Notes: a model not told the origin generated them from the sequence alone. Positions 9,799 through 16,810 are shown, numbered from the whole stretch's first letter. The stretch is 62,997 bases of DNA, filler included, from Reclinomonas americana ATCC 50394 (GCA_048213135.1; 12 parts of 6 records of this genome joined end to end with filler, not necessarily neighbours in it); one strand, 5' to 3'. Numbers and translations: made by a program.

Positions 9799-12700
9799 CC
9801 ACCACCTCCTCCTCCTCCTCCACCTCCTGTCACCTCCACTGCAGATCCTGCTCAAGTGCATGTCACTCTATCTCCCTTTCCCACTCCCTCTCCCACTCCT
9901 GTTGCTGCTGCTCCTCCACCAGCACACCCTCGTCCCACCAGCACAGCAGTGACACTGGCACACAAGATCGCAGCTGCACATGCAGCTCAACAACTTCTCC
10001 CATCATCATCGTCATCATCATCAAGCAATCCCGGCGACCTGTCCGCCCTCCATTGCCTGGTACTTTGTAATCATCATCATCATCATCGCAGTGCTGGTCA
10101 TTTGCAGAAGAGTCTCTCCTTGGCAGGTTCCGGTATTCGCCAATCAGCGGGAGACGGAAGCGGATAGTGTGCAAGGTCGAGCGACGGCGGTGCCGGCGGA
10201 TGAGTTGCTGGATGCGTTTGTGGCGCGCAAGGGTTCCATGGCCACGGCCAAGGTGAGGTGGACTGAGAGGGGAAGTGAGTGTGGGGAAGTGAGATCAGTC
10301 TGTGTCGTTGGGATGGTGAAGAGGGAGGGCAGGCTGATGAGTGGAAGCGAGTGAGAAGCTGTGCTGTATGCAGAAGGGGGCAGGCTGAGTGAGAAAGAAC
10401 GCAAGGCGAGAGAGGGAAGTGGGAAACTGAGCTGAATGCAGTGAGTGTATGCTTCACAACGATGTTGGAGATTCATGCTGAGAGAGAAAGAACGGAAGGC
10501 GAGAGAAAGCGAGTGGGAAACTTATGCCGTGTGCAGCGAGTGTATGAGTCATGCAGAGTGAGTAAGGAAGGCGACGGAGGGGAAGTGAGTGGGAGGGCGA
10601 ACTGTGCTGACTGCAGCACACTGTGATTCAGCACGACGCAGTAGGAGACAGGCTAGTGAGAATGGAGGAAACCCGAGGGATGCTCAAGGACCTGTGAACC
10701 GGCCTTGTAGCGTGTATAGTAAAGACAGTGCACGCGAATGAGAAGAGAGAAGGCGACTGNNNNNNNNNNNNNNNNNNNNNNNNNNNNNNNNNNNNNNNNN
10801 NNNNNNNNNNNNNNNNNNNNNNNNNNNNNNNNNNNNNNNNNNNNNNNNNNNNNNNNNNNNNNNNNNNNNNNNNNNNNNNNNNNNNNNNNNNNNNNNNNNN
10901 NNNNNNNNNNNNNNNNNNNNNNNNNNNNNNNNNNNNNNNNNNNNNNNNNNNNNNNNNNNNNNNNNNNNNNNNNNNNNNNNNNNNNNNNNNNNNNNNNNNN
11001 NNNNNNNNNNNNNNNNNNNNNNNNNNNNNNNNNNNNNNNNNNNNNNNNNNNNNNNNNNNNNNNNNNNNNNNNNNNNNNNNNNNNNNNNNNNNNNNNNNNN
11101 NNNNNNNNNNNNNNNNNNNNNNNNNNNNNNNNNNNNNNNNNNNNNNNNNNNNNNNNNNNNNNNNNNNNNNNNNNNNNNNNNNNNNNNNNNNNNNNNNNNN
11201 NNNNNNNNNNNCCCTTCCCCCCTTCCCCCCTTCCCCCCCCCCCCCCCCTCCCACAGGTCATGGTGGTGGCCGGCTGGTCCGGCGGCGGCAAATCCGTGCT
11301 CCTGCGCTCCTTCATTGCGCGCACGGCGGAGAAGAACGGCAACCCAGACGCCGCCACCGGCGCCGCGTCCGGTGCACCGACACTGGTGCTGTCGGCGCGC
11401 CTGGCCACCATCCCCGCCGCGGTGCTCGACGGTGGTGAGGAACTTGTACCTCACGTGCTCCACCAAGTCAACGCGCTGGTGCAAGACGAGCGACTGCGCA
11501 TGTCAGTGGTGGAGGTGTGTGCAAATGGCAAAGAGCAATGGTTGCGCGATCTCGTGTGCTCACACTCTCCCCCCTTCTCCTGTGCAGTGCCGGCGAGTGT
11601 CGTCTCTCGTGCTCGTGCTTGACGGTTTCGATGAGTGCGCACAGACCCCACGCAATCTCTACGTGTACCATCGTCTCGCGGTGCGTCCCATTGCGCTCGC
11701 TCCTGTGTTGCACTTGTGCTCATTCGCGCTGCAGGAGTGGCCCAACTTGCAGCTGGTGGTGTCCGTGCGTCGCGAGTACATTAGCCGGGCTGGCCAGCTG
11801 TGGGCCGAGCAGTACTTTGTGCCCGTCGATCCCCGCATGTCACGTGCGCAGTTGGTCACGGAGCCGGAGCGCACACTCGCTCGCTGCATGTTGCGCTCGT
11901 TCTCTGTGGAGGATATTCAGCTGTTTCTGCAGCGGTACTCGGAGAAGCAGGAGAACAGCGCCGAGGTGTATCAGAGCTTGATGATCATCCTCCAAAGCAG
12001 CCACGGCTTGATGGAGCTGGCGTTTTCGGTGCGCCTCTTGTCATGATTTTCTCCTCGTGCTCGTGGTCGTGGCTCACCCCCACTTGCGCAGCCTATCATG
12101 CTCAACATGATTGTCAGCATCGTCGAGAGTATTCGCAGGAACAACACGGGCCGATGGACGCGCTCTCGTCTGTACGACATCTTCTTGGAGAACAAGGCGC
12201 GGTGGGAGCTGACGCATCATGCCGCCGACATTCGTGAGGTGTGTGAGACCTGGTGCTTCATTCGCAAAGCGATCTTCTCGCTCTACCCCCTCTCTTGCTC
12301 CACCGTCCTCGTGTCTTTCCAGCTTTCATCTTGCTTCTCTCTCTCTGTCGCTGGTTGTTGAGTGTTTTAGTTTTCTTCCACCTTGTTCTCCTTCCCTGTT
12401 TCTTGCCATTTTTTCGTTCTCCTTCGTCTCTTCTCCCTTCTCCCTCCTCCTCCTGTCTCCTCTTCAATCCGCTGTCTCTCCGTTCCAATCCTCTTCTCTT
12501 CTCGTCTGTTCCCATCATTTCTCCTCTGTCTCTTCTTCCTTCTCCCCTCCTCCTGTCTCCTCTTCAATCCTCTGTCTCTCTCCTCTGTCTCTCCGTTCCA
12601 ATCCTCTTCTCTTCTCGTCTGTCCCCATCTTTTCTCCTCCGTTTCCTCTCCCTTCTCCCTTCCTCCTCTTCAATCCTCAATCTCTCTCCTCTTCCTCTCC

Positions 12701-15700: not shown

Positions 15701-16810
15701 TGCGCACACGGCGCTCGTCGGCACACTGGCGGTGACGGCAGATGGCCGTCGCGTGGTCAGCGGAAGCGCAGGACCGGACGGCTCCATCCGAGTGTTTTCG
15801 CTCGACAATGGTCGCGAACTCAGCCGCGTGGCCACGTTCCCCGAAGGCGTTGTCTCGCTCCGACTCATTTGCGGCGACACACGCGTGGTCTGCAGCACCA
15901 CGAACCAGCTGGTGGTGCTTTCGCTGTCGACGGGCGAGATTGTGCGTCGCCTGGTGACTCCCGGCGACGAGTGCATGATTCGCAAGGTCGTGATGTCGCC
16001 CGACGAAAAGTACATTGTCGGTGGACTCGACGACGGCTCGGTGTGGATGTGGACCGCGCCCGCCGATGAACCCATCCCCGGCGTCGACGCACCGGCACAG
16101 AGGTGAGTGTGCAGAGAAAAAAGCGGAAATTCGTGGCACGGCTGCGCTAACCTTTGTGGGTGTGTGGGGACAGTGGCGGATTGCTGGTGGATGTTATCGG
16201 TTCCCTGCGACCGTCGTTTGCCGGCTGCCAGCTGGAGGGCGCCTCCGGGATGTCACCGTTATTGAAACGGCACCTGGAAGCTCCGCCACCTCCACCGCCA
16301 CCACCGCCGCCAGTCGTGTCACCTGCTGGCGCCGCCGGACCGAGCAAAGCGAGTGCGTCCGCCGTGTCTGCTGCCTCCGGAGGCGACTCGTTTCGTTTGC
16401 AAAGTGCTTTCTCCGTCTCGCCGCAGACGCACTCACTTGTTTCTTCCGTGGACAGTGTGCTGGCGGTGGACGGCTTCAAGAAGGGCGGCTTCATGCACAA
16501 CACGTGGCAGGCTCGCCGACTGGAACTCTCCGTCGCCACTCGCCAAGTGCAATACTTTGAGGCCGGTAAGCAGACGCCCAACGGCGGCTTCTCGCTCGAC
16601 AACACCACATTTGAGGTGGCACCGGCGCCGGTGACGCACCAAGGCGTGCCACTCGCCGTCATCACCGTCACCCCGTCGTCCGCCACCACCGGACGCAAGC
16701 AATACGTGATCGGCATTCCCACGGCCCGCGAGCAGGCCACCAAGTGGACCAGGGCCATGAAACGTGCCGGCGCAGTGATGCAACAAGACGACGATGACGA
16801 GCGGGAGTGA
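9799..16810 (+). CDS. NLR-like STAND NTPase: NACHT + pentapeptide repeats + 14 WD40 + polyPro + PH domain. Exons include 9799-10059, 10127-10252, 11257-11514, 11588-11680, 11735-12028, 12092-12238, 13167-13274, three short exons within 13350-13810, 13875-16102, 16174-16810
   Basis: Walker A GWSGGGKS; Walker B LVLDGFDE; VVSVRREY; LAFSPIMLNMIV; winged-helix SFVHKSFLEY; pentapeptide run DLRGVRLRGADLRDALLHRTDLRDADLRECNLRGA; 14 countable WD40 blades; PH pattern KKGGFMHNTWQARR..QYFE..GGFSL..EQATKWTRAM. Confidence 0.88.
12440..13140. repeat. Pyrimidine-rich intronic degenerate repeat array
   Basis: About 6 copies of CTCCGTTCCAATCCTCTTCTCTTCTCGTCTG(T)TCCC(A) inside NLR intron 12239-13166. Confidence 0.7.

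Follow-up and report, generated by a model that had tools for sequence, protein, structure and literature searches.

A NACHT-type receptor gene of Reclinomonas americana with pentapeptide and WD40 repeats and a candidate spliced-on PH-like domain

WD40 propellers are the usual C-terminal sensor of STAND switches. In Apaf-1, TEP1, NWD1 and the NACHT-WD40 NLRs HET-E/HNWD of fungi, one or two WD40 propellers follow a P-loop STAND NTPase, and the N-terminal effectors of these proteins include CARD, TROVE, HET, PNP_UDP and others. We know of no pentapeptide spacer or C-terminal PH domain in any of these proteins. The plant receptors RRS1-WRKY and RGA5-HMA are NB-ARC-LRR proteins that function as pairs linked genetically and carry integrated domains resembling known targets of effectors. 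The activation of NLRP3, a NACHT receptor, is reported to depend on binding to phosphoinositide-bearing (PtdIns4P) membranes (PMC9402428). In the literature, for the most part judged by title, no paper was found that describes a combination of NACHT, WD40 and PH; among the papers returned are ones on caspase homologues of cyanobacteria or other prokaryotes, on conflict systems of bacteria and on amphioxus. Here, we describe a multi-exon gene of a GC-rich eukaryote, Reclinomonas americana ATCC 50394, that encodes an NLR-like NACHT-pentapeptide-14xWD40 protein and may continue into a PH-like domain. The gene lies on the + strand of a stretch of 62,997 nt, filler included, in which 12 parts of 6 records of the assembly GCA_048213135.1 are joined end to end (the window); coordinates are counted from its first letter.

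The receptor shares its layout of a STAND NTPase and a WD40 sensor with Apaf-1, TEP1, NWD1 and HET-E/HNWD. The sequence-only reading had stated that NACHT, pentapeptide and WD40 modules occur together in bacteria, and one match bears this out: P0112 (1732 aa, from a metagenome), for which a precomputed Pfam list gives the same three modules (PF05729, PF00805 and WD40 families), but not their order. In the bacterial proteins P0127, P0145 and P0178, NACHT is followed by pentapeptide repeats, as in the receptor described here. The pentapeptide stretch of the bacterial NACHT-pentapeptide proteins is up to 66% identical to that of the receptor over short spans, while the WD40 part of the bacterial proteins is merely 22-30% identical. 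The bacterial proteins have recognisable effectors (PNP_UDP in P0112) and no PH among the Pfam entries listed, and unlike these relatives the gene described here contains spliceosomal introns. With the plant NLRs that carry integrated domains it shares an extra, non-canonical domain C-terminal of the repeat sensor. NLRP3 has instead a polybasic stretch that links PYD to NACHT, where the receptor described here has a candidate PH domain with putative lipid binding.

From position 11257 onward the gene model has nine exons with GT-AG borders throughout, and the codon score is positive in frame and negative out of frame for every exon. Conceptual splicing from 11257 yields a coding sequence of 4095 nt (1364 aa) with zero internal stops. 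The first exon (11257-11514, codon score +57.8) contains a Walker A motif, GWSGGGKS (11272-11295), which fits GxxxxGK[ST], and the second (11588-11680), assigned by its Pfam matches, contains the Walker B stretch LVLVLDGFDE (11606-11635), which fits four hydrophobic residues and Asp followed by acidic residues (hhhhD, DGhDE). A third exon (11735-12028, codon score +82.3), beginning LVVSVRRE and ending in LRSFSVEDIQLFLQRY, continues the NTPase core and is followed by an exon of the post-NTPase helical region (12092-12238, codon score +32.2, GT-AG borders). The next intron (12239-13166) is long, 928 nt, and consists of a C/T-rich tandem array (C 0.44, T 0.43) with a period of 106-113 nt, about six copies and 77% matches; seven of the eight introns other than the candidate intron discussed below measure 54-75 nt. 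Four small exons (13167-13274, 13350-13478, 13542-13679 and 13748-13810; in-frame codon scores +25.3, +26.5, +35.6 and +23.1), with introns of 75, 63 and 68 nt between them, lead to a large exon (13875-16102, codon score +545.7) whose translation contains the end of the NOD module, the pentapeptide repeats and 14 WD40 units.

The assignment of the NTPase to the NACHT kind is the best explanation of these sequence features. Both Walker motifs stand on separate small exons, but the Pfam NACHT model (PF05729), scanned on single exons rather than on the spliced protein, matches each of them weakly. Exon 11257-11514 aligns to model positions 2-29 (E 0.067, 13.4 bits) and also matches AAA_22 (E 0.0035), and exon 11588-11680 aligns to positions 78-99 (E 0.02, 15.2 bits) and also matches NPHP3_N (E 0.034). 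The two NACHT matches are colinear over consecutive exons, and their 13.4 and 15.2 bits compare with a gathering cut-off of 26.7. The third core exon has no Pfam NACHT match in the same single-exon scan. Residues 190-272 of the query nevertheless align to residues 391-469 of bacterial P0127 (E 1.4e-4, against 244 proteins), in which Pfam calls NACHT at 243-431, so that exon 11735-12028 aligns to the end of that domain. In the ESM Atlas the same exon finds NACHT clusters (0.85, 0.80 and 0.75), which rank behind two first hits that are spurious. The NACHT module read from the raw sequence is retained as a NACHT-like STAND NTPase of a eukaryote, with weak support both from the exon-by-exon profile matches and from P0127 and the Atlas.

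The repeat modules are more sharply defined. The pentapeptide repeats that had been claimed are confirmed (PF00805, E 8.5e-16, with 57.6 bits where the cut-off is 20.2). Roughly 12 units occupy about 14037-14210, and residues 1-125 of the query are matched by 1995 pentapeptide-repeat proteins. The claimed count of 14 WD40 units (14226-16052), enough for two seven-bladed propellers, was reproduced by seeding 12 units with a regular expression and finding two more with an HMM built from those 12 (units 8 and 14, iE 0.018 and 0.0012); PF00400 by itself marks 10 stretches on the large exon (E 3e-64). The family Beta-prop_TEP1_2nd also matches the propeller region (E 1e-22, 81 bits, under the family's 89-bit cut-off). 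Among 7997 proteins scored, 751 matched the large exon at E<=0.001; in the 120 matches listed identity is 22-30%, and those with a name are bacterial. A metagenome scan for the large exon gave one locus from 91 pattern matches, which is 25% identical and useless for synteny. No LRR family is found in the best 25 of 55 Pfam families for this exon. Since the sensor consists of WD40 and pentapeptide repeats and lacks LRRs, the receptor is NLR-like in the broad STAND sense only; a strict NLR needs NACHT or NB-ARC, LRRs and an N-terminal effector.

The 5' end of the gene falls in assembly gaps, which span 8898-9797 (900 N) and 10760-11211 (452 N). The gene start previously placed at 9799 is the first base past the 900-N gap and is not confirmed: there is no coding signal in any frame in 9799-10059 by codon score, and no Pfam match for 9799-10059 or 10127-10250. 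A frame-2 ORF from an ATG at 9980 reads as a transmembrane-like segment, WYFVIIIIIIAVLVICRR, over an (ATC)6 microsatellite, with codon scores near zero (+1.0 and -8.1); for the same stretch, an intron of 67 nt (10060-10126) is an alternative reading. Downstream of it lies a tentative upstream coding exon (10127-10252, ending in ADELLDAFVARKGSMATAK, donor GTGAGG at 10253) with a codon score of +11.5 against -38.9 and -19.8 in the other frames. Adding this exon keeps the frame open (1406 aa, no stop), and the intron joining it to the exon at 11257 would contain the 452-N gap. An upstream signal-peptide exon (ATG 8493) probably belongs to another gene. Because the 5' end is lost in the gaps, the proposed N-terminal lipidation, and with it the idea of a protein tethered at both ends, is unsupported.

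At the other end of the gene, the main question is whether the WD40 exon is joined to the PH-like reading frame downstream of it. The splice signals described by the sequence-only reading are all in place: the exon closes with CAGAG at 16102, directly followed by the donor GTGAGT (16103-16108), GCTAAC is present at 16146-16151 (CTAAC at 16147-16151), and the acceptor ends in ACAG at 16170-16173 (CAG at 16171-16173). The candidate intron (16103-16173) would be 71 nt long, in agreement with the other short introns of the gene, and the join of 16102 to 16174 keeps the frame (AG plus T, giving Ser), which then stays open to the TGA at 16808-16810. The composite pattern GTGAGT-N30-60-CTAAC-N10-35-CAG has a single occurrence in the window, which is the one at 16103-16173, against 0.18 expected, and at least once, anywhere, in 16 of 100 shuffles; AGGTGAGT occurs five times against 2.31 expected. 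The donor, branch and acceptor signals may be described as good but unproven.

A stop codon, TGA (16104-16106), sits within this donor, and the receptor could end there, with a separate gene for a PH-like protein of 186 aa starting at an in-frame ATG at 16250. Such a protein would have a disordered Pro/Ser/Ala N-terminus ahead of the PH-like part and would use either its own promoter or, if the organism has spliced-leader trans-splicing, the AG at 16173 as a trans-splice acceptor. The WD40 array is complete ahead of the stop, as the last of its 14 units closes at 16052, and short intergenic spacers occur in this compact genome, where the ATG of the next gene (17066) lies about 255 nt past the PH stop. 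The acceptor at 16173 also has the weakest pyrimidine tract among the introns of the gene (0.45 from -23 to -4, against 0.65-0.95 in the eight others), which speaks for the same reading. Against it, the spacer of 143 nt between the TGA and ATG 16250 would have to fit a 3' UTR, a promoter and a 5' UTR, and the stop is embedded in a perfect AG|GTGAGT, with CTAAC and CAG downstream at intron-typical spacing. Moreover, the 25 codons ahead of ATG 16250 (16175-16249) have a coding-like score in this frame (+15.7, compared with -12.4 and -22.0), and the context of this ATG, GGG-ATG, is unlike the AC-ATG of the presumed starts of two neighbouring genes (n=2). We regard two separate genes as possible but rather unlikely, and a fusion of the WD40 exon to the PH-like exon by splicing as likely.

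If the donor at 16102|16103 is used, the embedded stop would be spliced out and the last exon would contribute about 100 aa of PH-like domain. The two parts could be connected by a linker rich in Pro, Ser and Ala (acceptor 16173|16174) or directly, by way of a second acceptor, likewise in frame, at 16455|16456. The latter would define an intron of 353 nt with CTCAC at 16432-16436, is closer to the other introns of the gene than the acceptor at 16173, and would skip the linker (16174-16455). Of the poly-Pro linker proposed before, the run of ten Pro codons (16283-16312) is real, but because of this second acceptor the linker may be either coding low-complexity sequence or intronic. Codon statistics were dropped as a means of deciding on the linker, as they break down in Pro-rich sequence of low complexity. 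The stretch 16250-16455 scores -33.5, but a control on Pro-rich sequence in the next gene, assumed to be coding because its frame is open, gave -118; coding is thus compatible with a negative score. Retention of the intron would yield the same receptor without the PH-like domain, ending in APAQR, so that splicing could switch the tail on or off.

The region behind the linker (about 16457-16777 for the PH-like domain, followed by an acidic tail and the stop, TGA, at 16808-16810) has a strong in-frame coding signal, with a codon score of +79.2, where the two alternative frames give -100.9 and -85.1, and a GC3 of 0.80-0.81. Its identification as a PH domain is supported by neighbours in the PDB and the ESM Atlas, but not by a Pfam call or by the AlphaFold models, which are poor. 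The only two PDB phmmer matches at E<=10 are both PH domains, those of pleckstrin-2 and Sbf1; their E-values (0.41 and 0.67) are not significant alone, and the alignments span beta1-beta4. The first ESM Atlas matches are PH clusters (0.91 and 0.90, recognition 2930), and the ten best family-bearing matches all fall in one clan, a result that one third of shuffled proteins also reach. Pfam PH (PF00169) was not found, and no family at all reached E<=10 with 16445-16807 or E<=1 with the complete exon. The PH fold is a seven-stranded beta-sandwich capped by a C-terminal helix. Two single-sequence AlphaFold (AF2) models with low confidence (pLDDT 43.5 and 51.6) contain four strands and a C-terminal helix carrying a Trp (AREQATKWTRAMKRA), which we take to be the hallmark Trp of PH domains; the first three expected strands are folded in neither model.

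The exon could also be joined and yet encode no PH fold. The C-terminal part would then be an orphan domain, or a tail that is disordered but includes some beta structure, or the ORF could be untranslated. The missing Pfam family at E<=10 and the low AlphaFold confidence are compatible with this, as is the outcome of the fold searches, which list no PH domain: Foldseek against the PDB gave no match at E<=0.001 with either model, and the best Z of a wide VIA-align search was 5.0. However, low-confidence models give meaningless matches, and as both models are poor these searches are uninformative and count neither way. A phmmer search with the PH exon against 1.84 billion representatives returned two matches, both confined to the poly-Pro stretch and none to the PH part, which likewise fits a reading other than PH, and a word-index search among longer proteins returned no relatives. 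Neither of these searches gave a self match, so the proteome of the organism is probably absent from them and the absence of the architecture there says little. The strong in-frame coding signal, the PH identity of the sole PDB sequence matches and the PH clusters among the Atlas neighbours all argue against a tail of another kind, which we consider improbable. The assignment as a PH domain is probable, on weak sequence and language-model evidence only, and we hold the PH fold of the C-terminal domain to be a well-favoured prediction.

Taken as a whole, a single gene that encodes a NACHT STAND NTPase, a pentapeptide beta-helix of about 12 units, 14 WD40 repeats and a spliced-on PH-like exon is somewhat better than an even bet, and the sequence supports an architecture in this order. 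By analogy with established STAND/NLR behaviour, a ligand on the propellers would free the NTPase for nucleotide-dependent oligomerisation, and the effector end would be expected at the N-terminus, inside the assembly gaps. The PH-like module would most likely localise or regulate the receptor via a membrane lipid or a protein partner and would not act as the effector. Most PH domains have no specific lipid binding. In FKKGGFMHNTWQARR, the first Lys and the last Arg are present and a Gln stands at the middle basic position, so that, in a presumed alignment to Akt-type PH domains, two of the three basic residues of the Akt-type motif K-Xn-(K/R)-X-R in beta1-beta2 would be found (K..WQAR).

Provided that the exon is fused and has a PH fold, the domain could instead serve as integrated decoy or bait, in the manner of plant NLR-IDs, by mimicking a host PH protein that a pathogen targets, and not as an anchor to lipid or for localisation. 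Its placement after the sensor repeats, which recalls RRS1 (WRKY) and RGA5 (HMA), and the incomplete phosphoinositide motif are in line with such a role. No paralogue is present within the window, which counts against a decoy, and we know of no pathogen, paired helper or paralogous free PH protein for this organism. The evidence does not discriminate between decoy and anchor, and we judge a decoy quite unlikely. More speculative still, and very doubtful, is a phosphoinositide-reading PH domain behind a double-propeller sensor whose inclusion is set by the 71-nt intron with its stop-bearing 5' splice site. Retention would then give a soluble receptor and splicing a membrane-recruited one, and alternative splicing would set the balance between cytosolic and endomembrane (e.g., phagosome) surveillance.

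The combination of NACHT and WD40 with a PH tail may be an unusual rather than a revolutionary architecture. STAND/NLR switches are assembled from interchangeable modules, and the positions of these modules reveal how detection is wired to response in a given lineage. If the reading presented here is true, the PH-like module would provide a receptor of a unicellular eukaryote with an element for localisation or bait of its own, placed after the sensor, and would parallel both the integrated domains of plant receptors and the lipid-dependent recruitment of NLRP3 by the use of a different part.

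The candidate receptor gene lies on the + strand, and its exons were modelled by reading 8000-14000 and 15900-17100 and then locating the borders. They form a first block (11257-11514, 11588-11680, 11735-12028 and 12092-12238) and a second block (13167-13274, 13350-13478, 13542-13679, 13748-13810 and the large exon, 13875-16102, translated as P0001); with a last exon at 16174-16810 the spliced coding sequence measures 4095 nt (1364 aa) and contains the terminal stop only. Codon log-odds, trained on the receptor gene itself, lie above zero for all exons in frame and below zero in the other frames, and GC3 in these exons is 0.68-0.84. 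The internal introns are 54-75 nt long in seven of eight cases, the sole long one (928 nt) lying between 12238 and 13167. This long intron holds a C/T-rich tandem array at 12417-13115 (period 106-113 nt, about 6 copies, 77% matches).

P0001 matches WD40 in Pfam at E 3e-64 over 10 stretches, together with many further propeller families, and an HMM trained on 12 units seeded by a regex places 14 units in register, including two unseeded ones (iE 0.018 and 0.0012); these would be enough for two seven-bladed propellers. Pentapeptide repeats occupy P0001 residues 61-112 (PF00805, E 8.5e-16), and among the 1995 pentapeptide-repeat proteins that residues 1-125 drew in a word-index search, some carry NACHT on a Pfam check. 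The Walker A (GWSGGGKS) and Walker B (LVLVLDGFDE) motifs sit on two consecutive small exons, which match the Pfam NACHT model at positions 2-29 (E 0.067, 13.4 bits) and 78-99 (E 0.02, 15.2 bits), scores that come from single exons rather than the spliced protein and lie below the cut-off of 26.7. The third exon of the NTPase core has no Pfam match and aligns with the end of the NACHT domain in the bacterial protein P0127; its Atlas neighbours include NACHT and nSTAND3 clusters at 0.75-0.85, below two spurious top matches at 0.92. Membership of the NACHT family is likely. The label NLR-like given in the sequence-only reading holds in the broad STAND sense and fails in the strict one, no LRR family being among the 25 best of 55 Pfam families for the large exon.

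The same reading had joined position 16102 to 16174, and the sites it named are present: the large exon ends in the donor AG|GTGAGT, inside which lies the TGA that closes its open frame (16104-16106), and CTAAC stands 27 nt before the CAG at 16171-16173, giving an intron of 71 nt. The composite donor-branch-acceptor pattern occurs once in the window, both strands counted, at this join (0.18 expected), and anywhere in 16 of 100 shuffled windows, a chance figure inflated by the pattern having been picked after the site was seen. Chance alone would hardly place the pattern where a 798-codon open frame stops and a coding frame begins. The 25 codons from acceptor 16173 to the first in-frame ATG (16250) score +15.7, the other two frames scoring -12.4 and -22.0. 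Against the join, the pyrimidine content of this acceptor (0.45) is lower than in all eight other introns (0.65-0.95). It is possible that two genes meet here, a 186-aa protein starting at ATG 16250, perhaps after trans-splicing at 16173, as would suit a compact genome in which about 255 nt separate the PH stop from the next gene's ATG at 17066; however, the 143-nt spacer is short, and two genes would make the donor a coincidence. When 11 GT and 12 AG sites were combined, 38 pairs kept the frame and left no stop, and five of these use donor 16102. The alternative acceptor 16455|16456 (pyrimidine content 0.70) has CTCAC at -24, a motif found between -19 and -29 in five of the eight other introns; it would create a 353-nt intron, leaving out the poly-Pro linker so that the PH-like domain follows directly. 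The frame is likewise kept by a variant with a mini-exon (16174-16257, then GTTATT...16455). The linker at 16250-16455 has a codon score of -33.5, and a control from the next gene, a stretch rich in Pro that its open frame suggests is coding, reaches -118, so the codon score cannot decide whether the linker codes. No close relative was found among protein representatives, in the search with the large exon or in a metagenome scan. Judged from sequence, the WD40 part is probably fused with the PH-like exon.

On the + strand, 16457-16807 is plainly coding (+79.2 versus -100.9 and -85.1, antisense frames at most +12.4, GC3 0.80). A Pfam scan of the C-terminal domain returned nothing, and no homologue was found among 1.84 billion representatives. 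In phmmer against 177,635 distinct PDB sequences exactly two matches reached E<=10, both of them PH domains (pleckstrin-2, 1x1g, E 0.41; Sbf1 PH, 1v5u, E 0.67); the alignments span the FKKGG strand, WQARR and on to the PNGGFSL strand, and a trimmed query gave the same outcome. PH clusters also top the ESM-Atlas feature search (0.91 and 0.90), with the 10 best family-bearing matches all in one clan (recognition 2930, subject to the tool's own caveats). Two single-sequence AlphaFold models of low confidence (pLDDT 43.5 and 51.6) show four strands and then a C-terminal helix with the Trp of ...ATKWTRAM..., and fold searches with these models were uninformative. The PH assignment made earlier has the PDB matches and the leading Atlas clusters in its favour, and Pfam and the models' low pLDDT against it; a PH-like fold is probable. 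Of the three basic residues with which canonical PH domains bind phosphoinositides, two appear to be present, and for that reason lipid binding is possible and far from implied.

At the 5' end, the gene start previously set at 9799 turned out to be the first base past a 900-N gap. Codon scores detect no coding signal in any frame of 9799-10059, a Pro/Ser-rich reading that also has no match in a Pfam scan, and the suggested N-terminal lipidation has no basis in the sequence. A tentative extra upstream exon at 10127-10252 (+) scores as coding (codon score +11.5); joined to 11257 it keeps the frame open (1406 aa), and a 452-N gap falls in the intron between them. Positions 10060-10126 can be read as a 67-nt intron or as part of a frame-2 ORF from ATG 9980, with a transmembrane-like stretch over (ATC)6 and codon scores near zero. 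In the frame of 9980 (9980-10126, +) this microsatellite reads as Ile6 within the 20-residue hydrophobic stretch WYFVIIIIIIAVLVICRR. Translation in this frame would place a membrane anchor immediately ahead of the NACHT exons; its coding signal is neutral. Farther upstream, an exon at 8493-8643 (+, ATG 8493) begins with MTHSSRVFVVFSCVFVAVLVAVATIAQSANA, which resembles a signal peptide; after it come a GT donor and GA/CA microsatellites that extend to the 900-N gap, and the exon probably belongs to a different gene, one for a secreted protein.

The window DNA is a draft eukaryotic assembly, GC-rich (about 0.5-0.67 per 2 kb outside gaps) and with genes interrupted by short GT-AG introns. Among its numerous N runs, 11 are joints written N44-TTAATTAATTAA-N44 (5509-5608, 18431-18530, 22317-22416, 27894-27993, 35743-35842, 44504-44603, 51378-51477, 55559-55658, 57137-57236, 59721-59820 and 61540-61639), in which TTAATTAATTAA is a six-frame stop linker; the window therefore consists of concatenated contigs, and adjacency across joints depends on the assembler. 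One joint falls within the KPKPKPSKPQPPKDGD array of the next gene (17066-19400, +). That gene starts with the signal-peptide-like MRRLRNVLALLALVAIVVAAFASA and, past its introns, runs through an extended region rich in Pro, Thr and Ser and numerous KPKPKPSKPQPPKDGD units in tandem; its product resembles a mucin-like protein of the secreted or wall type. At 48941-55196 (+) long open frames that look coding (GC3 0.73-0.78) follow one another, the last with a RING finger (zf-RING_2, E 1.1e-6, 54354-55196) and the other five pieces with no Pfam match; together they are probably a single large RING E3-like gene with multiple exons.

If the receptor works as characterised STAND proteins do, the propellers would keep the NTPase inactive until ligand binding, with the pentapeptide helix perhaps a rigid spacer beside them, and nucleotide exchange would lead to oligomerisation that brings N-terminal effector parts together; the N-terminal part of the receptor is absent from the assembly. 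The most plausible task of the PH-like tail is to localise or regulate the receptor, though it could reasonably be a decoy instead. Because a stop lies inside the donor, intron retention would give a tail-less receptor with one extra residue, and retention or splicing of the 71-nt intron could act as a simple switch.

The combination of NACHT, pentapeptide repeats and WD40 does occur in bacteria, as had been stated, in the metagenomic P0112 (1732 aa), and the bacterial P0127, P0145 and P0178 combine NACHT with pentapeptide repeats. Eukaryotic look-alikes are Apaf-1, TEP1, NWD1 and fungal HET-E-type proteins, and the integrated domains of plants are a functional parallel to the tail. NTP-dependent conflict systems of bacteria have pentapeptide repeats and beta-propellers among their repeat domains, and NACHT-clade STAND NTPases are sporadic in these systems (PMC7159879); NB-WD40 proteins are reported from bacteria and algae (PMC7145615), and NLRP3 undergoes PtdIns4P-dependent recruitment (PMC9402428), a further functional parallel. 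No PH domain placed after the sensor turned up in a search of the literature made mostly at the level of titles. If the splice is real, such a domain would be a novel variation on a familiar architecture; since STAND proteins are well known for mixing their modules freely, the significance of this candidate tail, with its predicted splice and fold, would be moderate.
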